NCBI GenBank assembly: GCA_951406725.2
Contig: OX597825.1
Location: forward strand, 9,858,001-9,922,000
DNA: 64,000 nucleotides
Reading direction: 5' to 3'
Source: Octopus vulgaris
Lineage: Eukaryota
Shown: positions 14,649 to 61,107 of the stretch, in pieces
How the letters are laid out: each line of letters starts with the position of its first letter
Position numbering within the stretch: the first letter of the stretch is position 1
Made by a program: the position numbers and the translations under genes
Notes under the pieces: model-generated
The model's database searches: none
Told to the model about the DNA's origin: nothing
Seen by the model: only the letters and a program-made list of their open reading frames with translations

Positions 14649-15180
14649 CAGAGATAAAGAGAGACACAGAAAGACACACAGAGAGAGAGACACAGAGAGA
14701 GAAACACAGAGAGAGACAGACAGACAGAGAGAAGTGGAGAGGTTTGCAAAAGAGAAGAAAACCAATTTGACTCTGAAACAAAAGAGATGGAAAGTGAAAT
14801 GTAAACTTGTCCGCATCTGGCAAATGGGAAGACGAATGCCATAAGAGAAAGAGTTGGGGACTGATGCAGCCCTAAATGTCTACTTACTTCTTGAGAGGAC
14901 TGTGATCATCTCGCAAAGTGTTTGGGTGTTCGGCATCCACAGCAAAGGGTCTGATGACACCCCAACCGAGTGACCTTGTTTTGCTGACCCCGTCTGAATC
15001 TTTTAATTGGCCAACAAGCTCTGCAACAAGTACAACACTGGGCGCTTTCAAAGTGGTGTGCATGTAGACCACCTGAAGGGAGACAGCAGCAGAAGAAGAG
15101 AGAACAAGAGATATAAACCTGGAGAAATAAAATCAGGCTGAGAAGACAAATACATGGTTGTTGGTTTGTTTCATCCAGAC

Positions 15181-15213
<33 letters not shown>

Positions 15214-15550
15214 GACACAGAGAGAGACAGAGAGAGACAGACAGAGAGACAGAGACAAACAGACAGACAGACAGAGACACAGAGAGAGACAGAGAGACAG
15301 ACAGACAGAGAGACAGAGACAAACAGACAGACAGACAGACAGAGACACAGAGAGAGACAGAGAGAAAGAGAGACAGAGAGAGAGACAGAGAGAGACAGAC
15401 AGACAGACAAACAGAGAGACAGAGAGAGACAGAGAGACAGAGAGAAAGAGAGACAGAGAGAGAGACAGAGACAAACAGACAGAGACAGAGAGAGAGAGAG
15501 AGAGACAGAAAGAGAGAGACACATATAGAGAGAGACACACAGAGAGACAG
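14285..15550. repeat. (GA/GACA)n tracts on both sides of NPHP4 exon 3
   Basis: 14285-14730 and 15177-15550. Confidence 0.95.
14888..15072 (-). CDS. NPHP4: NPHP4 coding exon 3 (185 nt)
   Basis: cccttcAG acceptor, AA|GTAAGT donor; VVYMHTTLKAPSVVLVAELVGQLKDSDGVSKTRSLGWGVIRPF matches LYFHTSL...VVEVV...SCGFGILRIF. Confidence 0.92.
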
Positions 15551-15952
15551 AGTGGTGTGCATGTAGACCACCTGAAGGGAGACAACAGAAGAGAAAACAA
15601 GAGATAAAACCTGGAGAAATAAAATGAGGCTGAGAAGACAAACACGTGATTGTTGGTTTGTTTCATCCGATTCCTAGCGACGTTAGAAGGACCAGCATTT
15701 CAGAAAGGATGAAAATCCTATCACTCTCATCCAGCACAGAAATTTCGTGTTATCCATTTCCTTATTCCCACCTTGATCAGAGGAAATGAGCTTATTTTGG
15801 TATACCTAGTTCCTTTCTCATGCATTCTACCCACCCACCCACTACACACAATGAACAACAGGCAACACAATACCAACATGATTGCATTGAAGGGCACAGA
15901 AAGTAAATTTAAACCCTTATAGCCACAGGAGTGGCTGTGTGGTAAGTAGCTT

Positions 15953-16777: not shown

Positions 16778-16921
16778 CTCATTGAATTGAAGAGTTGTAC
16801 TTTTTCCTCTGCCAGTGGAACCGGTGACGCTTGGACTCTGCCACTGGCAACCAAAGTAACAATGGTAAACAGCATCATAAAGACTGACGTACAATTGGTA
16901 GACTTCTTTGGATTGGGAAAC
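16778..16921 (-). CDS. NPHP4: NPHP4 coding exon 2 (144 nt)
   Basis: ttttccAG acceptor, GAG|GTGAAT donor; VSQSKEVYQLYVSLYDAVYHCYFGCQWQSPSVTGSTGRGKSTTLQFNE matches the NPHP4 segment LRVSFFD..YRHFFGRTW...FNE. Confidence 0.9.
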
Positions 16922-23398: not shown

Positions 23399-23564
23399 TT
23401 GATAAATAAAAAAGTTATAGTTGTTTAATGAAACCAGACTAAATTTATGATTATGTTAGAAATTAATTGAAACACACAAGGGGTGTATTTTGGTCAGAAA
23501 TATAGTAAGGAAAGGGTTAAAAAAAGGTTTTCAACCAATGGAAGAAGAAAAGACAGTCACATAC

Positions 23565-23762
23565 CTTTAACTTCTTACTATCATCGTGACCACGGTAACC
23601 TCCACTCCTACCACCACCACCACCACCACTTTGATGCAAGCCTTCACAAACCGAGAAACGAATCCGAAACGGACAGCTATAGCTACGGTGGAGAGGTTTT
23701 GCTTTCTTCGTCAACCGTTCGTGATGTGGTGCCAACCTCCTTTCATAATTCGGTAACACCAT
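23565..23762 (-). CDS. NPHP4: NPHP4 candidate alternative first coding exon 1B
   Basis: ATG with an in-frame TAA two codons upstream; 66 codons MVLPNYERRLAPHHERLTKKAKPLHRSYSCPFRIRFSVCEGLHQSGGGGGG...KKLK; alignable to exon 1A; phase-0 donor AAG|GTATGT compatible with exon 2. Confidence 0.65.
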
Positions 23763-23963
23763 CGTTTAAGGAGATAAACAACAGGTGTTCTGACTTGACT
23801 GCCCAATCAAGAGAGTCTCTTCTAACGATTTTCTTTACATTCACAACAACAACAACAACAACAGCAGCAAAGGTAATTATATCAGTATTTCACCTTCACC
23901 TGCCACCACTGACAGTCCATGGTCAATTAAAACATGGATTTGCTTTTTACTGTCAGTAAAGAC

Positions 23964-23996
<33 letters not shown>

Positions 23997-24242
23997 ACAC
24001 ACACACACAGACATACACACACACACACACACAGAGACTCACACCCACACACACACACTGAGTTTTCCTATCTTAAAGCAGAAAGCTTGGTCGAGTGAAA
24101 CTTGAGCATTCCAACAAAGTTATGAATGATGAGGATAGCTTCTACAATCCAGGAACTCTCTCTCTCTCTCTCCCTCCCTCTCTCTCCCTCCCTCTCTCTC
24201 ATTTGCTTCATTCATTTTTACATCCGGTTTTCCATTAGGCCT

Positions 24243-24284
<42 letters not shown>

Positions 24285-24409
24285 CGTACATATATATATA
24301 TATATATTTGACTGGGCCTGATGAAGCCTTCTGGCTTCACAGACCCCAGCAGAACGTCCAACCCATGCTAGCATGGAAAACGGACGCTAAATGATGATGA
24401 TGATGATGA

Positions 24410-24450
<41 letters not shown>

Positions 24451-24454
24451 CATA

Positions 24455-24509
<55 letters not shown>

Positions 24510-25333
24510 TATATATATATATCACGTGATCACGTGACCGACCAGTCCATCAGATGTAGTTACACATCGCTGGTCACAATGCGTTCGCATTGTTTTAGCC
24601 TTCGAATGACGCCATATATATATATATACACACATATATATACACACATATATATACATATATGCATAGATATATATGTATATTTATGCATATCATCATT
24701 ATTATCATCATCATTTAACATCCATATATATATATATGTACATGTATATATATACATAATACATATATATGTGCATACACACACACACATATATATAATT
24801 TGTATATTTGTGTGTGAATACATACGTATGAAAGCATATTTGCATGAGAGAGAGGGAGGGAGAAAGAGAGAGAGGGGGGAGGGAGAGAGATGGGGAGAGA
24901 AAGAGAGAGAGAGGGAGGGAGGGAGACAGATTTGCCTGACTCCTTTGTTTCTCCTTCTCAATACTTCTAGAAACCAAACAATGCATAGATTCATATTCAT
25001 ATATTACAGGTGTGGATGGGTGTGGATGTGGGTGTTTTTACATCTAGTCTACATATTTATATAAGTGTGTGTAGAGAGATGCACATGCACACACACACAT
25101 TGTATGCAAAAGTGTGTGTGTGTGTGTGTGCGTGTGTACATATATATATATGTATATGTATCTGTATTTTTTCAACATTTACAAATAACATGGAAAAAAT
25201 AAATAGTTACCAGGGTAGCAAAAATTCACATAAGTACCAAGTATATAACAGCCTACTTATAAAGGTAGAAATTCCAGGTTTTGGTCAGAAGTATAAAGAT
25301 TTGAATAACACCTGCGTTTATATATCTATATAT

Positions 25334-26578
25334 CAGGTCATCTTATAAGTTCTGTCCAATTTTACCTTTTTTTTATAAATTGAATGAAATTTAATAGCAT
25401 TTTAGAATGTCTAATGGAATTTTAAATTATTTTTATGCATGTGTACATTTAAACTAATTAAATATCATTTTACAGAATAATAGAATTAAAATTTTTTGAT
25501 TAAAACCCTTTCCAACATGGAAGTATCCAAAGAGCATTTGAGGTACATAATGCTTTATGAGTACAAAAAAGGAAACTCTGCAGCCGAAGCGACTCGAAAC
25601 ATACACTCAGTTTATGGGAAAGAATGCTTGAATGAAAGAACTTGCAGAAGATGGTTTGCAAAATTCAGAAGTGGAGATTTCAGCCTTGAAGATGAAGATT
25701 GAACAGGACGTCCAGTTGAGTTTGATGATAAGCTCCTTGAGGCATTACTTGAAGAAAATCCTGCATTATCAGTTGAAGAATTAGCAATAAAGCTTACTTC
25801 AAACCATACAACTTGGAAACTTTCCTAAACTTGGAAAATAGGTGCCTCATGAATTGTCCAAAAGCAACCACAAATCCCGAGTTGTCATCTGCTCTTCTCT
25901 CCATTCTCGCAAACTCATTTCACCCTTTTTGGATAGACTTGTGACTGGTGACGAAAAATGGATCTTCTATTGAAATGTTAAACGTTGTAAACAGAGCCTT
26001 GGAAAAAAGGGAAAAAGCTCAACTACAACCAAGAAGGGAACTTTATGGGAAAAAGGTTCTTCTCTCTATCTGGTGGGATTGCAAAGGAGTAATTCACTTT
26101 GAATTGTTACCACCTAATACAACAACCAATGCTCAAGTCTACTCTCAGCAATTAGAGTGTTTGAAGCAAGCTTTGAAGAAAAAAAGACCTGCTTTAGGGA
26201 ATCAGAAAGAAGTGATGTTTCACCAGGACAATGCAAAGGTCACATCACAGAAGATTGAAAAGCTTGGTTGGGAAAAAATTCCTCATCTACCTTATTCTCC
26301 CGACCTTGCTCCTTCAGACTACCATTTGTTTCGTAGTTTACAGAATCATTTGGGTGACATAACTTTCACAAGCCAGGAGGAGGTCGAAACTGACATTTCA
26401 GAGTTCTTCACTTTGAAACCAAAAGAGTTTTACATTGATGGGGTTAAAAAGTTTGTAAATAGATGGAAGGAAGTCATAGATAATCAGGGAAAGGACATTG
26501 ATGATTAAATTCCAGTTAAATATAACATTTGATTACTTGTTTTCTTTATTCAAAATTCGGACAGAACTTATGGGATGA

Positions 26579-26582
<4 letters not shown>
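25334..26582 (+). mobile_element. Mariner (DD34D-type) transposon, near full length
   Basis: ~28-bp TIRs (AGGTCATCTTATAAGTTCTGTCC / GGACAGAACTTATGGGATGACCT), inserted in TA repeats, transposase remnant inside. Confidence 0.92.
25517..26508 (+). pseudogene. Mariner transposase pseudogene
   Basis: HTH (RWFAKFRSGDFSLED), *VPHEL, VTGDEKW, FHQDNA and YSPDLAPSDYHLF motifs; several stops, frameshifts and deletions. Confidence 0.92.
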
Positions 26583-26629
<47 letters not shown>

Positions 26630-27250
26630 CCAGCTGCAGAGAATCTATCTCGACAAATTCATTCCGACCCATACAGAAAGCGATCGTTAAAATGATGGTG
26701 ATGATGATAATAATAATAATACTATATGTATGTGTGTATATCTTTTCCCCGCCTTTTACGTGTTCCAGTTATTGGACAACGGTCATGCAGGGGCACCACC
26801 TTGATGGGTTTTATTCGAACAAATATATATATATATATGCCACTCCGTCAGTTACGATGATGAGGGTTCCAGATGATCTGATCAACGGAACAGCCTGCTT
26901 GCGAAATTAACATGCAAGTGGCTGAGCACTCCACAGACACATATACCCTTAACATAGTTCTCAGGGAGATTCAGCGTGACATGGTGTGTGACAAGTGGGC
27001 CCTTTGAAATACAGGTACAACAGAAATAGGAAGAAAGAGGGAGAGAAAGTTGTGGTGAAAGAGTACAGCAGGGTTCGCCACCACCCACTGCCGAAGCCTC
27101 GTGGAGCTTTAGGTGTTTTCTCTCAATAAATACTCACAACAATGCTGGGTCTGGGAATCAAAACCGCGATCCCATGACCGTGAGTCTGCTGCCCTAACCA
27201 TTGAGCCATTGCACCTCCACATACATATGTATATATATATATATATATAT

Positions 27251-27719
27251 AAATTAAATTAGAGACAAAACCACTATTATGCAAATCAAACAATGAAATT
27301 AATTTATATTATTTAGATATGTAACAAATATTAAAAAATATAATTAATATCCACTACGATCTTCAAATTGTTAATTTTTTATATTGTATAAGCCTTAGGA
27401 GTAATAATATTCTCCTTATGTAAATATTGTTGTTTATGTAATGATCTAATTATCGTAATTTTCTATGTTATTAGATATTAAATAATTTAGATAAACTTTG
27501 ATAAAATTAGATATGTTTCTACTAAAGATGGTCTAGGCCATGTCTAATTTATTAGCATAATTTATATTAGATAATTATTCCCATTCATAATTATGTTTAT
27601 AGTACTTATAGTATTTATTTAATACTATATTACTAAGAATGAAATATTTCTATAAGTATTTTACATAAGATTTCGAAAGTCAGTTTACCTCTATTATGTA
27701 TTGTAGTATGATTATGGAC

Positions 27720-27755
<36 letters not shown>

Positions 27756-27811
27756 TTATAATTTATGTGGATGTGTGTGTTTGTATATATGTGTATTTGA
27801 TGATGTGTGTG

Positions 27812-27850
<39 letters not shown>

Positions 27851-28735
27851 GTATATGCATTTATTTATTTGTATGTGTGTGGGTGTGTATATATTGGTGT
27901 AAGTGTATATATTGAGTGTGCATATGTGTATGGGTGTAAGTGTGTGTGTATATATGTATGTATATATGTATATGAATGTATGTGAGTATGTATGTGTATA
28001 TGTGTATGTATATGTATATGTATGTATATGTGTATATGTGTATATATGTATATGTACATGTATATGTATGGATATTTTCTTATATATTTATGTATACGTA
28101 TGTATGGTTATTTTGAAATTAGCTATTTCATCTTTAAATATGAGAAATTAAATATATTAGGTTTTCATTATATACAATTGTTTATAGAGATTATTTTAGA
28201 TCTTGATTATAATATTTATATATATTTTCATTGATAATTTATATATATCAGTCATTTTAAATATCTATATAATTAGATATAGAATAATATGGATATTAGA
28301 ATATGGATTTTCTACCTTATAAGTTAAAGTTAATATTTAACATTATAGTCGATTTCGATATAATCATATTTAATAATTGAGTTTATTATAAGTAAATTAT
28401 TATTTTAGATTATATAGATTATTTATATCTTAAAAATATTGCTTATATTTTAGATTTTGAAATCACCTGATGAATGTCTGCTACTCAATAATTTGATGAC
28501 AGAAGACAGGAAACGACCGTAGTGGATATTAATTATATTTTTTAATATTTGTTACATATCTAAATAATATAAATTAATTTATGTATTGGCTTAAGTCTTT
28601 CATTGTTTGATTTGCATAATAGTGGTTTTGTCTCTAATTTAATTTAATATAATATAATATTTTACTATAAAATTGGATTCAATCCTAAATCTGATTTTTC
28701 CCTGTAAGTTTGGATTTATTCCCTAATATTTATTA
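27251..28735 (+). mobile_element. Non-autonomous Penelope/retrozyme-like element with inverted terminal repeat and hammerhead
   Basis: 27251-27361 is the reverse complement of 28515-28645 (one ~20-nt indel); hammerhead at 28463; AT-rich interior with no RT ORF; (TA)n on both flanks. Confidence 0.6.
28463..28525 (+). ncRNA. Minimal type I hammerhead ribozyme
   Basis: UCAC-CUGAUGA-A-UGUCU...AGACA-G-GAAAC-GACC-GUA-GUGG; core intact, A.G mismatch at base of stem II. Confidence 0.62.
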
Positions 28736-28773
28736 TATATATATAAATATATATATATATTATATATATATAT

Positions 28774-28806
<33 letters not shown>

Positions 28807-28855
28807 CACACATATATATACACATATATATATACACACACACATATATATACAC

Positions 28856-28889
<34 letters not shown>

Positions 28890-28902
28890 TCACTCACTCA
28901 CT

Positions 28903-28967
<65 letters not shown>

Positions 28968-29629
28968 TCACTAAAATTTCATTCATTAAATATTCAGAAA
29001 CATGACACTGATTTCAATCCTTCAGAAAGAATGTATAAAATATTATTAAGTCTTTTATTTTTAGAAATATTTCAGAAGGCAACTCATATCAAAATTCATG
29101 TCTGTACAAGCCACGCCAGGATTTCAACAGACAAAACAATGCAATATTTGTATAACAACTGTGAAATTATACACAAGATATTGGAAATAAGCTGTATTAT
29201 AAATCACCGGATAAATATATTGAACTTGGGTGACCTTTCCCATGTAAATCTGAAGTGAAATTTTAGACAGTTAATCATTCAGTCAAACTTAGAATGTAAA
29301 GAGACGGTAACTAAATACCAGAAGTCATTTCGTCTGCTACACTCACCAAATCTGTTATTCACCAACTTTCTGATATTAATAATGGGTTTTGGAGAGGTGT
29401 TAATCGATATTATTGACCACAGAACTTTTCCCAGTGTTTTATTTTTATCAGTCCTGGAGAGACGAAAGGCAAAGCTGACCTCAATAAGATTGCAAAAGAA
29501 CCAGGGTAAATACTTGCAAGGCCATAAGGATTCTGTGTATCCAACAACTTAGTAATAATGGTGGTGGTGAGGTGATGGTGAGGAGGAGGAGGAGGAGGGG
29601 GAGGTGGTGGAGGAGCAGCAACAGCAAGT

Positions 29630-30002
29630 GGAGGCACAATGGCCCAGTGGTTAGGGCAGCGGACTTGCGGTCAGAGGATCGCGGTTTCGATTCCCAGACT
29701 GAGTATTGTGTGTGTTTTATTGAGCGAAAACACCTAAAAGCTCCATGAGGCTCCGGCAGGGGGTGGTGGCGACCCCTGTTGTACTCTTACGCTCCAACTT
29801 TCTCTCACTCTTTCTTCCTGTTTCTTGATCTCCGACTTACTACGCAACCGCTGAGCTTGGATGCACATTCATCCATCCGTCGATGCTCTCAGTGTCAGAG
29901 GTTGACCTGCTTTCTCTTCTGTGGATCTTACAAATAGCAAAGAACCACGTTTCAGATTTCTCCCACTCTGGGACGAAGACCGCTTCACTCAACAACAACA
30001 AC
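29630..30002 (+). mobile_element. tRNA-derived SINE family S3; other copies 35228-35570 (+), 26840-27220 (-), 54320-54586 (-)
   Basis: Head TGGCCCAGTGGTTAGGGCAGCGGACT...GGTTTCGATTCC; (AAC)n tail; the two minus-strand copies carry a different tail. Confidence 0.8.
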
Positions 30003-31460
30003 AGTAGCAGCAACAGCCGACCAAGAATTTGGACCTGGAGATCTCCATTTCCAGCGACTTCAAGGGCCACCTCCCAGTGGTGTCGGGCGTCAACGAAGAG
30101 CCCTCGACTACAACAAGATGACCAAGGTTTTTTATTTTTGCAAGGTCTAGGGTCTCCCGCCCCTAAGCCCTAGACCATCACCTAATCACCCTTACTTGTC
30201 TTGTTGCTTAACAACAGCTACAGCAGCAGCAGCAGTGGGGCTTTTTTTTAGCCACAAGGGCCTGAGACATTGTGGACAGTACAGGAGATGAAATACACTA
30301 TATGAAAGAGGAACTTACATCAAGCAAACAGAAGTCAACGAAAATAAGACATAGCAAAAAAAAAAACATATTTCATCAAAATTTCAACAAGAAAAAGTAA
30401 GACCCTAGGTAATTTTGGGGTGGGGTAGGGACCCCATAGCAAAGGATCAGATTACTCTGCCACATCCAGCCTAAATGTTCTTCTAGTTTTATGTTAACCT
30501 TTTGCACACTGTAGGTACATCATGTTACCATATGAGTTTTCTCCCTTGTAGTAACAGGGCAATGGCAGGGGAAACAATTTTAGAGAAAATGCAGTGTGCT
30601 AAAGGTTAAGACTGGTCAGATCTGGACTCTCACACCTACCCAACCATGTCATTTTAAAAATAAGCAATCACATAATTGTGATATCAAAATTATGAGAAAA
30701 TGCATCGTTAACTCAAAACGATGTGAATAAATAAACATTACATTTGATGGAAGCTAAAGGGATAAATACATCCAACATCATTAATTTTGCCTTTCAATAA
30801 ATACACAGGCAGGCAGCACCTCCCGTTCCACCCTCACCTTCCTCCTCATGTGGTACTTCATGTCGTACTGTCCCTCTATAGCACTGCCGTGCCAAGGACT
30901 TTTGGAAGTTGTCCATGGTCTGGCCAAAAATCCCCCTCAAGAAACTGCTCGGTCTGTTCACAGAGATGCCCATAGTTACCCTCAGCTTATCACCACTCAG
31001 ACCCTCAAAGAAATTAATCAGATCTTTTAAGACCCTTTAAAAAATTAATCAGAGAGGAAGATGTCTATTTTCAAGCTTTTCTGACTAGTCCCCCATGTAA
31101 CCATTTTCATCAGAACCACCAGACTGAGAACAACTAACTTCCCTTTCCTGCCAAAGAAGGTGGTGTGTTCGATTCTTACCACAGACCCCAGAAGACCCAG
31201 ATTCATCTCATTCGTGATGACAACTTCCTTTTTCTTTTTCTTTTTTTTTTTTTGATACAAGCCCACAAGTCACTAATGCAAGGCTACTAGATAACGGTTT
31301 CAAATTTCGACACAAGGCCAGCAATTTCGGGGGAGGGGTAAGTTGATTACATCAACATCAGTTATCAACTGAAACTTATCGACCCTGAAAAGATGAAAGG
31401 TAAAGTGGGCCTCACCAGGAAAAGATGAATGAAATGCCACTAAGCATTTTGCTTGGCATA

Positions 31461-31872
31461 CTCTCTTTTTACTCTTTTACTTGTTTCAGTCATTTGACTG
31501 TGGCCATGTTGGAGCATCGCCTTTAGTCGAGCAAATCGACCCCAGGACTTATTCTTTGTAAGCCTAGTACTTATTCTATCGGTCTCTTTTGCCGAACCGC
31601 TAAGTTACAGAGACATAAACACATCACCATTGGTTGTCAAGCAATCTTGGGGGGACATACACAGACATACAAACATATACACACACACATATATATATAT
31701 ACATATATACAATGGGCTTCTTTCAGTTTCCATCTACCAAATCCACTCACAAGGCTTTGGTCGGCTTGAGGCTATAGTAAAAGACACTTACCCAAGGTGC
31801 CACGCAGTGGGACTGAGCCCAGAACCATGTGGTTGATGAGGAAGCTACTTACCACACAGCCACTCCTGCACC
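31461..31872 (-). mobile_element. SINE S1
   Basis: Reverse-complement copy of the 7408 element. Confidence 0.85.
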
Positions 31873-34225
31873 TGCTAATGATTCTGTAGCTCACTGCCCT
31901 AAGGACATTAAATAACCCTTTCTACTATAGGCACAAGGGCTGGAATCTAGGAGAAGGGCTTAGTTGATTACACTGATCCTAGTAATCAGCAGGTACTTAT
32001 TTTATCAACCCCAAGAGGATGAAAGGCACAGTTGACCTTGGTGGAATTTGAACTCAGAACATAGAGATGGATGAAAAACTGCTAAGCGTTTTGCCTGGCA
32101 TGCTAACAATTCTGCCAGCCCACTGCCCTAAGGGCACTAAATAATGGCATGCAGCATGGTTTTGTCCCCTGTATGCAACTCAGACAGGTTCAGTTGTTAG
32201 TGCTTAAATACCTGTAAAACTTGTCTCAAACAAGCACTGCCCCTCTATAGCACTGCCATGCTAAGGACTTTTAGAAGTTGCCCATGGTCTGGCCACCCCC
32301 CACCCACCCACCCCGCCCCTCAAGAGACTGCTCAGATTATTCTCAAAGATTCCCATAGTTACCCCCTGCTTATCACCTCTCAGACCCTTTATAGCAGTGG
32401 TTCTCAAACTTTTCAAAAGAATTTTACATGCTGGTCCCCTTAGACATTTTGTGATGATCTGTGGTCCCCTATAAAATGCTGGATAATTGACATGGAAGAA
32501 ATGACGTATCACCGTAATTTCCGGACTATGAACCAGTGTGAGAATGAGTATCTGGCAAAGGGCAAGGTCATGTGGGAACATGGATCGGTGAAGATAATGA
32601 TGGTGAGAGACATGCAAACATGTGGATTGCAATAGTGGAGTGATGAATCATGTGAGCGTAGAATACTGATGACACATGCTCGATCAACTGTAATCCCCTC
32701 ATATTTTCCATTGGCCAATCACACCTGTTGTACAACCAGTGTGATTAGCAAATGAGTGTGCAGGTGAGGCATGGGGTTTTGAGGTCAGCGACAATTAAGG
32801 ATGATAGCATGTGAAAAATGACAAGTCTTGAAATTTCTAAACTTAAGTGTCATATGGCATAGTGGTTAAGAGCGCGTTTGTTGGGGGGGGGGGGGGTATT
32901 ATGTCACTCAAATGCTCCGATACCCCCAGAATACAAGAGGACTAATAGTTCAACCAATGACTTTTCAGATGATGTAAAACTTGGCACGATTATATACTAA
33001 GAAGATATTTTAACTATTTTTTTGTTTTTTTATGTGTGCATGGTAGTCTCATTTTTATAAAATGTGCTCAGCAATCCATGCTTTGTAAGTGCAAATCCCA
33101 GGGCTTTATGGGTTAATGTCCACTTTCCATTCTGACACAGGCTGGACTTAGAAGAGAAAGGAAATACTAACTCGAATAGACCAGAACAGAAAGACCATCA
33201 GAGAAGGGAGACTACTCGATATAACTTTAAAAGTTGAAGGTTAATAAAATTTGAAAAATCGATCCACCCTTATTTTGTTTTAGAAATATTTGAAACACGA
33301 GACAATAAATGAAAAAATATATCTGCTGATCACCAGAGGTACCTGAATACAAATGATTAACCCTAGTTTTATTATGAAACAGCTGACAGAATGATAGCCT
33401 AAATATTAGCTTGAATATATGTCAGAAAATATTGTAGCAATAACGCAGCGAGCTGGCAGAAACGTTAGCATGCCAGGCGAAATGCGTAGCCATATTTCGT
33501 CTGACGTTACGTTCTGAGTTCAAATTCCACCGAGGTCGACTTTGCCTTTCATCCTTTCGGGGTTAATAAATTAAGGACCAGTTACGCACTGGGGTCGATA
33601 TAAGCGACTTAATCCGTTTGTCTGTCCTTGTTTGTCCCCTCTGTGTTTAGCCACTTGTGGGTAATAAAGAAATAAGTATGTTATTTAAAATAACCTTGAA
33701 TTAAAAAGGTTTGGTATTTTCTGAAAGTTCCCCTTCTGTTCATAACTTCTCATCACCAGGCACAAAGCCACTTGCCTCAGTACTACCACCACCACCACCA
33801 GTTGAGGGGGTCTTATTTTGCAAGTTACTACTGCTGGTGCCATATAAAAAGCACTTGGTACATTCCTAAGTGGTTGGCATTAGGAAGGGCATCCATGCAA
33901 AAGCTAACTGTAGAGATTTGTGCAGTGTGACTTGCCAATTCCTTTCAATCTGCCCAACCCATGGCTGCCTGCATAGAAAATGAATGTTAAATCATTTCTA
34001 GGATAGTCAGATAGCCACGACTTTTTCAGGTAATGAACTATGTTCTTTATGAACTCTGGGAAAGAAAGTGCCAGCTTTATTACCTGAGAAAAAACATCTG
34101 CAGTTTGCAGTTTGAAATGCATCAGTTTAAACCTTATGTAGAACTTTAGGTATGAAAAGAGAAAGAGAAGGAAAGAGAGAGACAGACAGACAGAAAGAGA
34201 TTAAGTATTGAAGTTTTATAGGCCT

Positions 34226-34397
34226 AGGAGTGGCTGTGTGGTAAGTAGCTTGCTTACCAACCACATGGTTCTGGGTTCAGTCCTACTGCGTGGCACCTTG
34301 GGCAAGTGTCTTCAACTACAGCCTCGGACCGACCAAAGCCTTGTGAGTGGATTTGGTAGAAGGAAACTGAAAGAAGCCCGTCGTATATATGTATATA

Positions 34398-34428
<31 letters not shown>

Positions 34429-34629
34429 GTGCATGTATATGTTTGTCCCCCCAATATCGCTTGACAACTGATGCTGGTGTATTTACATCCCTGTAACTTA
34501 GCGGTTTGGCAAAGAGACCAATAGAATAAGTACTAGGCTTACAACGAATAAGTCCTGGAGTCGATTTGCTCGACTAAAGGCGGTGCTCCAGCATGGCCAC
34601 AGTATAATGTCTGAAACAAGTAAAAGAGT
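34226..34629 (+). mobile_element. SINE S1
   Basis: Copy of the 7408 element. Confidence 0.85.
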
Positions 34630-35738
34630 AGACGAGTAGCATTTGGGTATCTTTTTTGCAATGCTAAAGTAAGTCTTAGTTTCAAGAAAGGAGAAACCCA
34701 CAGAGAATGGTAACTGGACAAACTTAGCGTGAAGTCATTTAGCAATGTTAAACATCAGGAAATCCAAGAGGCGTTTCAATCTTTCTGAGTCAGGCTTCAG
34801 AGAATTATTTTCTATTTTATATCCATGGTAACAAATGGGTATTTGGGGAAGAAGATATTTGTCATTGCCTCAATGTAATCCTGTGTTTCTTAGCAACTGA
34901 AATAAAGTGGAACAAGTTTCCATAATGCTTCTCAATAATTCTGCAAATGACAATAACATCGTCAAGACAGGCACCAATTCCTTTGATGCCACTGTTAGTA
35001 TATTTATCCTATCCACCAAAATGCTTACATTCACACAAAAGGTTAATCTTGGGAACCTGAATAAGCTTCCATCAGCTTGCAATGCTTTTATCATAATTGT
35101 GGAATGGAATCTGGTAAAATCCTACTTTCAGATCCAGTTCATGGTAGAATTTAAAGTTAGATAAAGAACACAAGAACTCTTTAAATTTAGGAAGTGGATA
35201 TGCATCTAGAAAACAGCAGCATTTGCAGGAGGTGCGATGGCCCAGTGGTTAGGGCGGCGGACTCACGGTAGGAGGATCGCGGTTTCGATTCCCAGACTGG
35301 GTGTTGAGTGTGTTTATTGAGAGAAAACACCTAAAGCTCCAGGAGGCTCTGGCAGGGGGTGGTGCCCTGTTGTACTCTTTCGCCCCAACTTTCTCTCACT
35401 CTTTCTTCCTGTTTCTTGTCCCTGACTTCCTACGCAACCGCTGAGTCTGGTGTCGGGGGTTGACCTGCTTTCTCTTCTGTGAGTCTTACAAATAGCAAAG
35501 TTCCACGTTTCAGACTTCTCCCATTTCGCGAGCTCTGGGACAAAGACCACTTGCTCAACAGCAACAGCATTGCAAATAGTCAATTACAAGATGTTAACTA
35601 GTTTCGGACCACTACAACTTGTCTCTCCTTGGAGAGACTGAGGGATCCATATTACTATCATCAAAGAGAAAAGGGGTAAGATTCAGTAGCGAAGGTATCA
35701 CCAATGTAGGTGAAAGATTCTTGCCAAATCATAGGAGT

Positions 35739-35895
35739 AGGAGTGGCTGTGTGGTAAGTAGCTTGCTTACCAACCACATGGTTCTGTGTTCCGTCCCACT
35801 GCGTGGCACCTTGGGCAAGTGTCTTCTACTATAGCCTCAGGCCGACCAAAGCCTTGTGAGTGGATTTGGTAGACAGAAACTGAAAGAAGTCTGTC

Positions 35896-35939
<44 letters not shown>

Positions 35940-36152
35940 ATATGTTTGTGTGTCTGTTTGTCCCCCCAACATCACTTGACAACCGATAGCAGTGTGTTTA
36001 CGTCCCCATAACTTAGCGGTTCAGCAAAAGAGACCGATAGAATAAGTGCTAGGCTTACAAAGAATAAGTCCTGGGGTCGATTTGCTCGACTAAATGCGGT
36101 GCTCCAGCATGGCCGTAGCAAAATGACTGAAACATGTAAAAGAATAAAAGAA
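35739..36152 (+). mobile_element. SINE S1
   Basis: Copy of the 7408 element. Confidence 0.85.
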
Positions 36153-36345
36153 TATACAACAGAGAACTTTGAATGCTGAAGGGTTAATGAAAAAGTGATT
36201 GAGGAAAATTATTGTTTCACTGTAATCAGTGCAACCTGCAATGTGACTGAAGATTGAAGATATGATAAAAATTAGTTAGCAGAATGTTATTGTCATTCAG
36301 TTGAGTCAAAGAATTCAACAGGAATACTTAGGAATGCAATATTCC

Positions 36346-36457
36346 TAAAAATGTTTGTGTTTAAATGTGAGATATAACAAGAAAAATTCAAATACATATA
36401 TATTTATGTATTTGAATTTTTCTTGTTATATATCACATTTAAACACAAACATTTTTA
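36346..36457. repeat. 112-bp near-perfect AT-rich palindrome
   Basis: ~53-bp arms with one mismatch and a 6-nt loop. Confidence 0.9.
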
Positions 36458-36916
36458 TTCTGATGTTTAATTTTATATCTTGCATTCTGTAGTTGACATA
36501 TACTTGATTTTACAGTTTGTATGACATGCAGAGATGGGATTTACCAACTCTAAAAGACAAGGATACTAGTATACCATGAATTATACCAGAGCTATATGAA
36601 ACCCTAATTTCTCTCTGACAAACTACAATAAACAAAGCAACATGCTCTTAGCACCATCTCATGTTGCATACGGATTTCATTCACCTATACAACGAAAGTG
36701 AAACCGTAGCTATGGCCGTTGCCAGTGTCATGTAAATGGTACCCGTGCCAGTGGCATGCAAAAAAAACACCCATTACACTCTCAGGGCGGTTGGTGTCAG
36801 GAATTGCATCCAGTCATAGAAACCATGTCAAATCAGAATGGAAACTGGTGCAGCTCTCCCACTTACCAGTTCCAGTCGAGCCGTCTAACCCATGCCAGCA
36901 TAGAAAGTGGACGTTA

Positions 36917-36947
<31 letters not shown>

Positions 36948-37775
36948 CATGGAGAACGTACGTGCATAGTATTCCAGAACAAACTTCAAGCCGCATGATA
37001 CCGGCCACTACATATACAGTCGCTTCATAAACATATCTAGACACATCTTCTACCCTCCAAATAAACGTACACATCAAAAAGTAACGGCATCGATAACCTC
37101 ATTAGTTCTAAACACTGTCGGGATACACCAGCAATGATAAAATGAACATTAAACATTACACTCTAGCGAAGCCCACCTCTCTGTTTATATAGTGGTCTCC
37201 ACGAGAACATACAGAAAACGAGGGTATCCTGCATGCAATACGTTTGAAAAGAGGCAATAGCTACGGCAGGGGCCCCTGTTGTTGTCAGCTCGATCAGTAC
37301 TGAACTGAGGCTAATCAACAATAACATTAATAATACGATAATTGGCCAACATGTCAAACAGTCCCATGACAACTCATGAAAAACTAGTACTCGTAGGCGT
37401 GTACGGTTTGGTTTCGCTTCAGTCAGAGGCATTTGCAACGATGGATCTGTGGATCAAACTCGTTCGACCAACAATTTGTGTCGTAGTTATGGTCGATCGA
37501 GGTTGGCCTGGGATGCAACAACACTTAATAATTAGGTCTCATCATTTTGGAGTCAATAAATCAAGTCAAAATAACACAACGGATTTGTATTAATCAGTTG
37601 AAACTCCTGTTATTACAGGACGAACCTGTTGCTAGAGAAAAGAAATTATTTCACACAATACTTAATGTCAAAGTATCTGGCTGATCGCAAGAGAGGTTTT
37701 TTTCTAATCCAATCTCTCCATCTTTTTTTTATTATTATTATTTCTCATTGAGTGCGTAGTGAAATCAGATCTTAC

Positions 37776-37901
37776 CGTGACACCATCAGAGGTTTTAAAA
37801 CAAATCTTGAAAGGAGTAGAGAGCTTCTGTGCGGTTGAAAGTCTTTCGTTTGGCGGTTGGACTATCGGTTTCGGTACCCAATGCGTATTAGGACCCGCCA
37901 T
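37776..37901 (-). CDS. NPHP4: NPHP4 (nephrocystin-4) first coding exon, distal variant 1A
   Basis: AAAAATGGCG start; 42 codons MAGPNTHWVPKPIVQPPNERLSTAQKLSTPFKICFKTSDGVT, resembling the NPHP4 N-terminus as recalled (PPHPQR...ESTAFQCVLKWLDG); phase-0 donor ACG|GTAAGA. Confidence 0.8.
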
Positions 37902-37920
37902 TTTTGGTCACGTGATGTAA
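37890..37920. promoter_or_regulatory. Putative bidirectional promoter core for NPHP4/PIGP
   Basis: Locally CpG-richer region; YY1-type CGCCATTTT overlapping the NPHP4 ATG, directly followed by E-box GGTCACGTGAT; divergent gene arrangement. Confidence 0.45.
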
Positions 37921-41176: not shown

Positions 41177-41264
41177 ATGACTAAACCAGAACACACACCT
41201 TTCCCATCGCCTGAAAGAGCTATATATGGATTTGCTCTCTATCTGGGTTCTTTCATCTGTATTG
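41177..41264 (+). CDS. PIGP: PIGP (GPI-GlcNAc transferase subunit P) first coding exon
   Basis: MTKPEHTPFPSPERAIYGFALYL, with the PIG-P PxPERAIYGF motif; acceptor at 41157, G|GTGAGT donor; implies an upstream non-coding exon. Confidence 0.93.
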
Positions 41265-41901
41265 GTGAGTCTACTTCCATTTTGCAAACAGGCTAATTGT
41301 CTGTTTCTTTACTAATTACAATCTGGCTTCCAGTTTATTATTGTGTATATTGAGTATCAGACAAACTGTCTTGTGCTAGTTACATTCCATTACATTCTGG
41401 GTTCAAATCTTGATGAGATCATCTTTGTCTTGTTTGTTGTCATATAAAAAAAAGGGGTAAAAAGCCCCTTCAGCCATGAATGACCATAAGATTGCCCCTA
41501 GAAAGTTACCCTCTGAGACATAGACACTTTCCTTCTCCTCCTATACAGTGGGGGATGTGTTCAAACACATAAACTGAAAGAGAGAGGGTGGAAGGAGGGA
41601 GGAAAAGAAAGGGTGAGAGAATGGAGGAGGGAGGTGAGGAAAGAGAAAGTGGTGAAGAGAGAGAGAGAGAGAGAGAACAAGACAAACTTTAAAACATCTG
41701 ATGTCAAATAAGTCAGCATCGACTCATCAGTGCCAAAACATCTCTTACACCAAAACGTTGATGTGTCATAAGTTTGCTGTGATGAATGAAAGGCCGGTTC
41801 CCACTTTGTGTTGCACAGATATAAGCCCTGAATATGTTTCCTCAAAGAAACCTTGTGTGGTCCCTTATACAATCTGAGTTTATATATTTCTCTATTTTCA
41901 G

Positions 41902-41974
41902 TCCTTTACATCGGCTGGGCCTTTATTCCCGACAGTTACCTCCATTCTGCAGGATTAACGTATTATCCCCAAAA
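41902..41974 (+). CDS. PIGP: PIGP coding exon 2 (73 nt)
   Basis: ttttcAG / AA|GTAAGT; LYIGWAFIPDSYLHSAGLTYYPQK. Confidence 0.95.
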
Positions 41975-42282
41975 GTAAGTACTGTTGATGGATTTGTATT
42001 TGTGTTCTTATAAGCAATGTCAGTTCCTGGTTAAAATGGCTCCCCTCACCTGAGATTCTGTTTCTACCTACAACCAGTCTTAAGCAAGTTACGTGTACAT
42101 CACAACTTCCACTTTACATTGAAGATAGTAAAGCTTATCAAATGACACTGAATTTCTTACTCTTTCAACAAATACTTGTTTGCTGTGCTAATGTGTTTAT
42201 CGCTTGAAGAATTGCACTGGTATGAGACTTGACACAAGAGACAAACTCTCAGTTTCATTTTCAATATATATATACATATGCT

Positions 42283-43006: not shown

Positions 43007-43125
43007 GTACTGGGCTGTTGCAATTCCTGCCTATATCATAATGATCGTTCTTCTTGGCTATTTAGCATATTTTGCCTTTGTTTTTATAAGCACAGAAAAC
43101 TTAGACTCCCTCAATACCATCACCG
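43007..43125 (+). CDS. PIGP: PIGP coding exon 3 (119 nt)
   Basis: ttctttcaAG / G|GTAAGA; YWAVAIPAYIIMIVLLGYLAYFAFVFISTENLDSLNTIT (second TM helix). Confidence 0.95.
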
Positions 43126-50223: not shown

Positions 50224-51273
50224 CTACAGATAAATGATAAAATTAATTAAACAATGAAGCTTTAAAACGGCTGCTCAACCTATTCACTGTAGAAATCTCA
50301 TGCGATCACAAGAGTTTCCCTGTGAAGAACCTCATTTTGTGATATAGGTCTTCTTGAGTAGGGGTGACTAAAGATGCTGAATAATGAAAGATAATATACA
50401 TCCTCAATTAATGTCCAGTTTCTGAGCTGACATGGGTTCTGACAAGCTAGGGGACTGCACCAAACTTCAGTGTTAACTTTATCATCATCATCATTTAACG
50501 TTCGTTTTTTTATGCTGGCATGGGTTGGACGGTTTGACTGAGGTCTGGGAAGCCAGGAGGATGCACCAGGCTCCAATCTGATCTGGCAATGTTTCTACAG
50601 CTAGATGCCCTTCCTAATGCCAACCACTCTGAGAGTGTAGTGGATGCTTTTTACATGCCACTGGCACAGGAACCAATCAGGTGGACCTGGTATATATCAT
50701 GTTCAGAAAGTAATTATTACATGCCACCGGCACGGGAGCCAGTCAGTGGGTACTAGCATTGGCCACATTTGGATGGTACTTTTTACATGCTACTGGCAAT
50801 GTCAAGTGGCATGCCAAATGAAGACAGATAAATTAAGTACCAGTTGCATACTGGGGTCGATCTAATTGACTGACCTCCTCCCCCAAAATTTTGGGCCTTG
50901 TGCCTAGCGTAGAAAAGAATATTTCTACTTCAGAAACTCAGTACTGTCTGAAATGTAATGGAAAATCACTCAGTTCTAAAACATTGATGTTCAGGTCAGA
51001 AAAGCAAAGGGTGAAGGGAATAGTAGTCATTTCCTTTGATTTCTAGATAGAAGAAGCAAAGAGGAAATAACACTTACTGACCAAATACAAAAAAAAGATA
51101 AAAATTTTCTTACACAGTGTTCTCCATCAGTGATGGGTAAATCTGTGATGCAGAGGAAAATTTCCATTTCATCAACTTCAAAAACAGAAAACTGCAGCAA
51201 ACACTGGATTCTGAATCCCTCAATAACTACAAATGGAATAAAACAACATGGAGGATGAAGGAATTCAACTTAC

Positions 51274-51448
51274 GAGTGAAACATGCTGGCAAGCATAATT
51301 CTTTCGTTTGTCGTTAATTTTGGCCGACCAAATTTTATGTTGATTGGGTAATTTTCTTCACAGGCCAAAAGTTCCAGAATGTCACGGCCATCCTTGAGAT
51401 ATCGACCCTCGGCCGTAATTCCATTAATACCAAGTACAGTATGTCCCA
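51274..51448 (-). CDS. TRAPPC4: TRAPPC4 exon 2 (175 nt)
   Basis: [10 protein letters not shown]...[27 protein letters not shown]; gttcAG / TC|GTAAGT. Confidence 0.97.
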
Positions 51449-51571
51449 CTGAACAGAGAGAAAAAAACTGAATTGTACAAATAGCCATTTTATGGACAAT
51501 AAAACAAAAAGTCAAAAATATAAGGTAGACATTCTTCTTTTCTATGTCTGTGTGTCTTATCATCATCATTA

Positions 51572-59938: not shown

Positions 59939-60005
59939 TGTATAAAACTGTAAAAATGGAATCTTATTTGAGAAATTAAAAATTTTTTCTTTGTCTTACT
60001 TTCAG

Positions 60006-61107
60006 GATAATTAATCAGGAGAAGAAGAAGGTAAAACTAAAGATCTTAGAACGCAAATACTTCAAGACTCCTCAAGAAGCAAACTTCCTGACGTGGAGGG
60101 CGAAAGAACAAATTCGTTTCTTAAATGCCGAATATCCTGAAGAATGGACACTTGAAAGACTGTCTCAGAGCTTTCCTATTAGCAAAGCTGGTTTAATTAA
60201 ATTGCTGTCTTCTACTTATGTGATGGATTCTGAGAAAATTTTAAAACATGATTCCAATGTAAAAAAGAGGTGGAAAAAGCTGAATGCAGAACTGTCCTTA
60301 AATGAAAGGGTTGTTAGCCCTGAATTCAAACATTTGATAGAATCAGGTAAATTGGAATTACTGAAAAATGCCGGAGGTTTAATGGAAGCTCCGAAATTGC
60401 CTTCTGAAATGCATAATGTATCAATGAAAAATTCTGAAAAGAAAATGGGTAGATTTGAAAGTATTTTACAAAATTATGAAAGATTTTCTGAAAAGCAAAA
60501 CTATATTTGTAATACTAGCAACAAACAAGATTTGGTTAAGCTGATGCCAGAAGAGCAAGATACAGGTGCCAAGATACCTATTGAAGAGTATAACGAGTCA
60601 AAGCTAGATTGGTCGTCTATTGATTATGAAATTAAAGAAACTGATGTCCGAGCAAGAAATTCTCATTTAGAACCTTCAGAAAACCTTGCTAATCAAATTA
60701 CAGAAGAATACCTGAAAAATGCTCCAAGAAAAATACGGAGAAAAATAAAGAGTGGCGATATTAGTTTGTCTGATCTGACTTACTTGGAGGCTTATCAGTT
60801 AATTGGCACCGAAAAGGTAAAGGATATCGAAACATCATCACAGACCAAAACTAATTACGAAAATGAACAATATTCAGAACACAACAGGGATTCACTGTTG
60901 GAAGAATTACTCTCTAAGTCATCATCCAGTGCTATACCTGTTGCAGGTAGTCACGAGAGAATGCCCGATTTTTCTGGTTTTACTGTTGATGATTATGTAA
61001 ATATACCTGAACATGTTAAAGGATCAAAGGGAACCGTATACAAAAAGGATAATGCATATTATGATGAGTATGGGGAGTTTTTATACAAAGTGCCAATTAG
61101 TGAATAA
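60006..61107 (+). CDS. NGRN: Neugrin-like gene exon 2; spliced CDS 1353 nt = 450 aa
   Basis: ctttcAG acceptor; LTWRAKEQIRFLNAEYPEEWTLERLSQSFPIS matches the neugrin motif LTW...EQIRYL..E.PE.W...RLAE.F; open to TAA at 61107. Confidence 0.88.

Follow-up and report, generated by a model that had tools for sequence, protein, structure and literature searches.

Two first coding exons of NPHP4 at the octopus locus

The analyzed window (64,000 nucleotides of Octopus vulgaris contig OX597825.1) contains the gene NPHP4, for which protein search gave full-length orthology with nephrocystin-4 and 77 proteins at E<=1e-20, the named ones being mostly nephrocystin-4. It matches the O. vulgaris protein CAI9730878.1, whose model uses exon 1A only, and residues 1-240 of the O. 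sinensis RefSeq isoform X1, which starts with exon 1B, fall in NPHP4 clusters of a protein atlas (0.96). As in known NPHP4, the ortholog carries an N-terminal NPHP4N-C2 domain (PMC3495828, in whose main text the word "isoform" has 0 occurrences).

The coding part of exon 1A (37776..37901, minus strand; 126 nt, 42 aa) is the conserved A-type start, which begins CAI9730878.1 and the O. sinensis isoform X2, and ends at the phase-0 donor ACG/GTAAGA. The coding part of exon 1B (23565..23762, minus strand; 198 nt, 66 aa) is a divergent B-type start, which begins the O. sinensis isoform X1 and ends at AAG/GTATGT, also in phase 0. Both are followed by the common exon 2 (16778..16921, minus strand; 48 aa, phase 0, predicted strands 2-3), which has a pyrimidine-rich tract upstream of 16921, and by the common exon 3 (14888..15072, minus strand). 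The initial annotation had placed these exons and phases correctly: 1A and 1B have their own ATGs and GT donors that fit 16921, while the rating of both donors as "strong" is a judgement by eye. They are thus two tandem exons in one gene, either able to join exon 2 in frame.

It was also claimed that 1B can never be an in-frame internal exon. An in-frame TAA does lie two codons before its ATG, but it excludes only acceptors upstream of the TAA. Because the in-frame AGs inside 1B have weak pyrimidine tracts (5–7 of 17), internal use in frame is unlikely, not strictly impossible. The Gly-rich basic linker attributed to a (GGT)n repeat is indeed present, as six GGT codons (23610..23627, minus strand) between predicted strands 1 and 2 of 1B, and among the B starts compared it is seen in octopus B exons only. 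An assembly artefact was dismissed, with a DNA-like contig crossing the 1B donor (run X7, which runs on to 23495) and both exons present in O. sinensis.

The divergent neighbour is PIGP, whose first coding exon (41177..41264, plus strand) lies 3.3 kb from 1A, with further exons near 41901-41975 and 43008-43118. The Pfam PIG-P model matches two PIGP exons (E 8e-8 and 6e-9), though neither match reaches the cut-off for the whole protein. The promoter which the initial annotation has 1A share with PIGP, and the separate one which it gives to 1B, are both putative.

Annotated isoforms, transcripts and the promoter side

In O. sinensis, the RefSeq isoform X2 starts with 1A and the isoform X1 with 1B, and the two have 0 differences over the remaining 1451 residues; these are gene models and not cloned cDNAs, and the read support behind them is not visible. 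The proposal of two alternative first coding exons and two N-termini is borne out at this level, both exons being joined to exon 2 in the annotated isoforms.

Putative transcript sequence was also found at 1B, in runs which we call RNA-like, their RNA status being a guess. One contig, record 8 of run X1 at depth 2.2, agrees with 23563-23784 at every base, and 11 of its letters past 23563 stay unaligned (bases not printed), i.e. the contig leaves the genome at the 1B donor, for 23563 corresponds to the donor plus the two letters GT common to intron and exon 2. RNA-like contigs from three studies cover 1B at depths of 2–7, with only one contig at the donor. Words of 1B occur in 5 of 18 RNA-like runs (0.57, 0.43, 0.40, 0.37 and 0.17) and next to none in the other 13, counts which, having no 1A control, are not taken as evidence of tissue restriction. 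The depth of 0 at 23533-23551 in three RNA-like runs was given no evidential weight.

Upstream of 1B the contigs continue unspliced to 23784, 23776 and 23831, although contig ends cannot mark a transcription start. The unbroken stretch 23763..23831 (minus strand) is the likely 5' UTR of 1B in its minimum extent, and the repeat further upstream is masked. At the edge of this repeat there is a possible acceptor (23832), and contig 16 of run X2 leaves 39 letters unplaced there. This would suit an explanation in which 1B is coding but not first, spliced from a non-coding exon near the 1A or the PIGP promoter, so that a single promoter region and ordinary alternative splicing would suffice; the consensus scans, which returned no YY1-like or E-box motif near 1B, and X-box and half-site scans for RFX, which returned nothing near 1A or 1B, agree with it. 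However, the DNA-like run X7 breaks off there too, leaving 41 letters, and the cut at 23832 is hence a masking effect; moreover, contigs of runs X1 and X3 end upstream without loose letters, and the acceptor has 9 pyrimidines in 17, weaker than those of exons 2 and 3. We regard this explanation as improbable.

At 1A, a YY1-like motif covers the start codon with an E-box just upstream (37896..37914, minus strand). These are consensus matches only, and about 0.01 and 0.09 of them, respectively, are expected per 420 bp at the window rate. Forkhead matches near the two exons are at chance level. CpG counts peak at both exons, yet only near the 95th percentile of the window.

Likeness of exons 1A and 1B within octopus

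The pairwise BLOSUM62 local score of 1A and 1B is 40, reached by 1 of 20000 shuffles. It is the best among 571 minus-strand intron segments, but of the 3620 segments in the window an unrelated one scores equally high. Profiles from other animals found 1A (E 9e-7), while 1B was not above background with A or B profiles (E 5 and 1.5). The ERL motif described as common to both exons is not conserved, since O. sinensis has KRAA where O. vulgaris has ERLT. Taken alone, the octopus likeness judged from these sequences is marginal. With 1B as the only query, protein search gave 0 matches among 3 candidates, and Pfam has no model for either exon; matches of the 1A query to P0003 and P0004 in the 50% representative set were dismissed as chance matches to repeat proteins.

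The tied score and the profile E-values above 1 would be expected if 1B were not homologous to 1A, but a stretch of intron that became an exon and came to resemble an amphipathic strand by convergence. On the other hand, 1B matches in register at an LxPxxER-like motif and at the strand, with 5 independent rows reaching z of 5 or more, and homologous second starts sit at the same junction in other molluscs. Such convergence therefore seems very improbable to us.

A and B starts across animals

Among 16 taxa with isoform sets seen, 9 have a divergent B start besides the conserved A start. They belong to 6 genera and comprise octopus, bivalves (clams and mussels), gastropods (abalone and limpet) and the brachiopod Lingula. 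In all same-species A/B pairs (9 of 9) the switch point lies where it does in octopus, 13–14 residues ahead of the conserved L[YF]D motif of exon 2, and the next 150 residues are identical in 9 of 9; moreover, the members of each pair lie on a contig of one and the same size. A and B as paralogous genes were rejected on this downstream identity. B-like starts are further seen in nemerteans, echinoderms, a hemichordate, amphioxus and bichir. A B start of Aplysia had no usable match in the protein atlas.

With octopus rows removed, the A and B profiles match at 97% in hhalign (E 1e-10), and 14 of 21 B rows match the A profile and 23 of 26 A rows the B profile (P<1e-3), in a comparison whose classes were set by eye and cut at the common strand motif and which is hence biased toward likeness. 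It used trimmed cores and left out Denticeps A, which has no strand motif; truncated or non-homologous starts among the 77 matches were not classed. At family level, these sequence comparisons argue strongly that A and B are homologous. The mean B-B score (31.8) is barely above the A-B score (28.2).

In the tree of 48 rows, built without the mis-cut Mytilus B, the A/B label takes 3 changes versus 16 when shuffled. In 11 AU tests, read at nominal p values on an alignment of only 44 columns, Haliotis-only (p 0.0003), Mercenaria-only (0.017) and gastropod-only (0.022) origins are rejected; a single origin of all B is not (p 0.24), although a single B clade is absent from the free tree, and neither are origins specific to Patella (0.38), Lingula (0.25), Branchiostoma (0.45), bivalves (0.37) or deuterostomes (0.12). 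The A/B pair is likely older than the gastropod radiation and may go back to the bilaterian ancestor. The old exon duplication supposed in the initial annotation is supported, with homology at family level and a layout reaching far beyond cephalopods. A single B clade including octopus 1B is neither rejected by the AU test nor recovered in the free tree.

The second starts might instead have arisen several times, with a convergent layout, and octopus 1B would then be a cephalopod or octopod re-duplication, or a conversion, of 1A. The free tree puts 1B beside octopus 1A, inside the set holding P0007 (98/65, unstarred, long branch); octopus 1A is the best match of 1B on trimmed cores (40, then 38 and 37); and in the alignment both exons have a basic residue and F in the strand where most other rows show C and L. 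Furthermore, no 1B-like exon was seen in the P0007 cluster (3 full-length members, all A), and convergent exon duplication is documented among the cases treated in PMC9741552. Against this, placing octopus 1B among the mollusc B starts lowers the log-likelihood by just 0.17 units (p 0.49), the own-taxon A is never first for the 7 other B rows that have one (ranks 2–17 of 27), and a gastropod-only origin is among those rejected above. We consider recurrent origin rather unlikely; the trees do not discriminate between one bilaterian duplication and several, or between an old B and a re-duplicate of 1A for octopus 1B.

Change of exon 1B between octopuses

A comparison of the two octopus proteins shows 3 changes and one gap in the 65 residues of 1B, against 9 changes in 1450 residues downstream (1B versus downstream, Fisher p 0.013) and none in the 42 of 1A. 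The gap is one whole codon, with one Gly fewer in the Gly run of O. sinensis. In run X7 all 4 coding differences in 1B alter residues, matching the O. sinensis X1. This faster change would fit relaxed constraint as well as positive selection.

These differences, together with the low contig depth, the weak profile scores and an O. vulgaris model that uses 1A alone, could also be read as a decaying or leaky exon, transcribed at a low level, modelled by the annotation pipeline and no longer needed. However, the two octopus forms have each kept the reading frame, the ATG and the join, and the changes sit in the low-confidence segment before the predicted strand, leaving the strand itself unchanged. 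Moreover, B starts persist in the 6 genera, and the B start is identical over 86 residues between two abalone species. We think decay quite improbable.

A predicted C2 strand in the exchanged segment

In the AlphaFold2 model of the O. sinensis X1 start, the N-terminal C2 domain has its first strand at 1B residues 30-43 (23634..23675, minus strand), where pLDDT is 96 for residues 31-40. When all 9 other rows of the input alignment were without a homologous exon 1, the first strand was again formed by residues 30-40, at pLDDT 70 versus 29–43 for their neighbours. Foldseek with the model of residues 1-239 returned the C2 domains of AIDA, NEDD4, PI3K and PLC-delta (best E 9e-7); a sequence search found no solved NPHP4 structure. 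By alignment, 1A residues 30-41 (37779..37814, minus strand) correspond to this predicted strand. According to the models, the exchanged segment is no free tail, and 1B is predicted to supply strand 1 of the C2 domain.

Since strand 1 is predicted to sit in exon 1, only a copy of exon 1 could yield a second start that still folds, which would explain why the second start is homologous, why the strand is kept and why the flanks drift. The exchange would alter the segment before strand 1 and the loop after it, and the charge differs, with 15 K+R versus 4 D+E in 1B and 5 versus 2 in 1A. C2 domains of PI3K/PLC-delta topology have the loop between strands 1 and 2 directed to the membrane. With this loop toward the membrane, the exchange of exons likely adjusts how the protein binds membrane or partners at the transition zone, where proteins of the NPHP4 family are known to localize.

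Discussion

Homologous alternative first exons with their own promoters are familiar from the protocadherin and UGT1A clusters. A comparable arrangement is IgLON 1a/1b, in which promoter choice selects one first exon to be spliced to common exons (PMC5288359). Unlike these three systems, NPHP4 has two copies only, and its exons encode about 40–110 residues with one domain strand and not a signal peptide or a whole domain.

By mechanism, octopus NPHP4 1A/1B is probably an N-terminal tandem-duplicated exon substitution, a well-known class. In the accounts of UHP regions (PMC8373072, PMC9741552), 40 of 236 human events are N-terminal, and many events are old and tissue-specific. The octopus case resembles them in having two homologous exons in one gene, used alternately in the annotated isoforms, which differ in one homologous region. 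It differs in that terminal UHP regions are described there as mostly exposed, whereas the NPHP4 swap holds a predicted core strand, and in that divergence has brought the likeness of the two copies down to the limit of what can be detected. The human UHP table contains no NPHP gene (TPM1 was present as control), and our literature search returned no publication describing a second, homologous first exon of NPHP4.

In summary, we propose that octopus NPHP4 probably has two alternative first coding exons derived from an old duplication. Annotated isoforms join both of them to exon 2, and either would give the predicted strand 1 of the C2 domain, with 1A conserved and 1B likely cell-type-restricted under its own promoter. 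Promoter choice would set which first exon joins exon 2, the joins being those of the gene models and the promoters putative. From the fast change of B, action in sperm flagella is our leading guess, about an even call.

More tentatively, one duplication in the bilaterian ancestor might have given a second first exon that remakes C2 strand 1 and the membrane-facing loop for one cilium class, most likely that of sperm flagella. Molluscs, brachiopods, nemerteans, echinoderms, hemichordates, amphioxus and bichir would have retained this exon, and most vertebrates would have lost it. If this is true, most animals have two versions of this ciliary gate protein and humans one.

At stake is the way in which the transition-zone gate varies from one type of cilium to another; NPHP4, a human ciliopathy gene, is regarded as a single protein. 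The two-start layout across phyla offers a clean test, with isoforms that differ only in the first C2 strand and its adjoining loops, and in animals that can be manipulated, such as sea urchin, starfish, amphioxus and snails. The exchanged piece is a predicted core strand, which is unusual among exon duplications, so that fold constraint becomes separable from functional drift. The A/B layout is likely an old, unreported way to fit the NPHP4 gate to different cilia.

Alternative first coding exons of octopus NPHP4

NPHP4 (nephrocystin-4) of Octopus vulgaris has two alternative first coding exons on the minus strand, as the initial annotation proposed. Exon 1A (37901-37776) encodes 42 aa and exon 1B (23762-23565) encodes 66 aa. 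Each closes on a phase-0 GT donor and fits exon 2 (16921-16778), which matches O. vulgaris nephrocystin-4 (CAI9730878.1, P0001) at 100%. An in-frame TAA does stand two codons upstream of the 1B ATG. P0001 starts with 1A, as does O. sinensis isoform X2 (XP_029643356.1, P0082), and in the O. sinensis RefSeq isoform X1 (XP_036363682.1, P0002, in the same cluster as P0001) a 1B start is joined to exon 2, with no differences between X1 and X2 over the remaining 1451 residues. These isoforms are pipeline gene models, which are usually supported by RNA-seq. In O. bimaculoides, all four models (P0005, P0081, P0083 and P0084) begin inside exon 2 and so are devoid of C2 strands 1-3, which is probably an annotation gap; they merit re-annotation for 1A and 1B.

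Contigs from three runs guessed to be RNA (three studies) and one resembling DNA were aligned to 23400-23960. The RNA-like contigs over 1B (23563-23784, 23680-23831 and 23638-23776) are free of differences from the window (depth 2-7). The first carries an unaligned tail of 11 letters, not printed, past 23563, which is the expected exit point of the 1B-to-exon-2 join because the intron and exon 2 both start with GT. The DNA-like contig continues past the 1B donor to 23495. As the runs are only guessed to be RNA, contig support for 1B transcription is modest. A high-copy repeat (23400-23525), very deeply covered by contigs of each of the four runs, starts some 40 bp past the 1B donor.

Elsewhere in the window, a broken mariner-type transposase (25490-26508, plus strand; PF01359, E 4e-23) lies in the intron that separates 1A from 1B. 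A cut-down duplicate (15545-15680, minus strand) of the exon 3 acceptor and first codons (15045-15175, minus strand) sits roughly 500 bp ahead of exon 3 and is followed by a CT-rich repeat; it is possibly a decoy acceptor or an assembly echo. A long open frame at 59980-61107 (plus strand) matches Neugrin (Pfam PF06413, E 2e-12), and an exon at 51270-51480 (minus strand), which we take to resemble TRAPPC4, gave no match in a Pfam search.

Homology of 1A and 1B

The two exons are real and homologous alternative starts, and the homology rests on relatives and structure, not on the octopus pair alone. Octopus 1A and 1B score 40, equalled in 1 of 20000 shuffles; this is the best among 571 intron segments and is tied by 1 of 3620 window segments, so that their likeness taken alone appears barely above chance. 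The ERL motif quoted in the initial annotation did not hold up, being KRA in O. sinensis. Profiles built from other animals found 1A; 1B gave no match to them above background. Profiles of A-type (conserved) and B-type (divergent) starts, made with octopus rows excluded, aligned to each other (hhalign 97%, E 1e-10), a comparison biased toward likeness by cutting both cores at a common strand motif, and 14 of 21 B rows match the A profile at P<1e-3.

AlphaFold2 modelled P0002 residues 1-239 (54 rows) as a beta-sandwich with pLDDT 83, in which 1B residues 30-43 form the first strand and the Gly-rich linker forms a loop of low confidence ahead of strand 2. The first strand forms again with 9 helper rows without homologous exon 1. 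Foldseek matched this model to C2 domains of AIDA, NEDD4, PI3K and PLC-delta, in agreement with the NPHP4N-C2 domain described in PMC3495828. By alignment to this 1B-form model, 1A residues 30-41 fall on strand 1. The prediction is that either exon provides the C2 domain with its first strand.

A and B starts in other animals

Searching with P0001 returned 77 proteins, whose starts were sorted by eye into A and B types, the latter divergent with varied and often long extensions. Members were listed for 10 clusters, mainly molluscan and multi-member, plus the P0001 cluster; 15 of 56 members of the Mytilus cluster were covered. Both starts occur in 9 of the 16 taxa covered (O. sinensis, Mercenaria, two Haliotis, Patella, three Mytilus and Lingula). 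Among the members listed, three taxa have A alone (O. vulgaris, Littorina and the P0007 cluster) and four have models starting downstream (O. bimaculoides, Argonauta, M. trossulus and Liolophura). In all nine pairs, the switch point lies 13-14 residues ahead of a conserved L[YF]D and the partners are identical over the next 150 residues. What is established is a pair of exons, an in-frame join for each in gene models, and a single switch point across taxa.

Branchiostoma, compared across species, has A and B types with the switch region unchanged, and in hemichordates and echinoderms the type differs by genus, some having A and others B. B-like starts are also found in two nemerteans, three heterobranch snails and Polypterus. 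The Polypterus senegalus isoform X1 (P0053) is B-like, while gar, sturgeon, eels and caecilians have A. The tree places this start beside Lingula B (94/85; long branch), and it may mark the point of exon loss in vertebrates.

Rates and descent

B evolves faster than A in most comparisons. Between O. vulgaris and O. sinensis, 0 of 42 residues differ in 1A, 3 of 65 in 1B (plus one codon gap) and 9 of 1450 in the rest of NPHP4 (Fisher p 0.013). In clams, 9/48 differ for A (Mercenaria vs Mya), 61/103 for B (Mercenaria vs Mactra) and about 60/298 for the parts common to isoforms. Mytilus californianus and edulis differ at 2/50 (A) and 7/53 (B), and two Haliotis species at 0/50 and 0/86.

The tree was built from 48 cores (27 A and 21 B; 44 columns), leaving out Mytilus B (mis-cut) and Denticeps A (without the strand motif). 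A/B labels change 3 times on it, vs 16 when shuffled. Non-cephalopod mollusc A rows form a B-free cluster (94/96) and gastropod B rows a cluster of their own (96/81); octopus 1B falls with octopus 1A in an unstarred grouping. Haliotis-only, Mercenaria-only and gastropod-only origins of B were rejected (3 of 11 AU tests). Patella-, Lingula-, Branchiostoma-, bivalve- or deuterostome-only origins were not rejected; the same holds for a single origin of every B, whether octopus is included or not, and for a grouping of octopus 1B with mollusc B. From the tree and AU tests, therefore, the A/B pair likely predates the gastropod radiation and may have a single bilaterian origin. On these alignments octopus 1B could belong with octopus 1A or with mollusc B.

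Promoters and possible roles

A YY1-like motif and an E-box occur at the 1A start and neither at 1B; the divergent neighbour gene PIGP, with which 1A may share a promoter, was confirmed from 41177. Choice of promoter would pick 1A or 1B, and the C2 fold would preserve strand 1 while the flanks drift. With 15 K+R in 1B vs 5 in 1A, the basic, Gly-rich 1B loop may change membrane or partner binding, and the B form may be used in a restricted cell type. That B acts in sperm is our guess, because of its rate and the male-infertility phenotypes in mouse. Nphp4 is down in Rfx2-null testis, according to PMC4498915.

The octopus starts work like an N-terminal tandem-duplicated exon substitution (PMC9741552, PMC8373072) and agree with its testable features: tandem exons joining a common next exon in frame, isoforms that differ only in the swapped region, and homology of that region. 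A term search of the PMC8373072 supplementary table returned TPM1 and no NPHP genes, and searches for NPHP4 isoforms found no report of two homologous starts in listings and abstract openings, outside subscription journals and bioRxiv supplements. NPHP4 adds a case to this known class, with a two-start layout shared more widely than was first guessed. Nematostella isoform X2 (P0057), whose cluster has one further member, has an A-type start; if Nematostella also has a B-type start, the duplication would be older than the cnidarian split.
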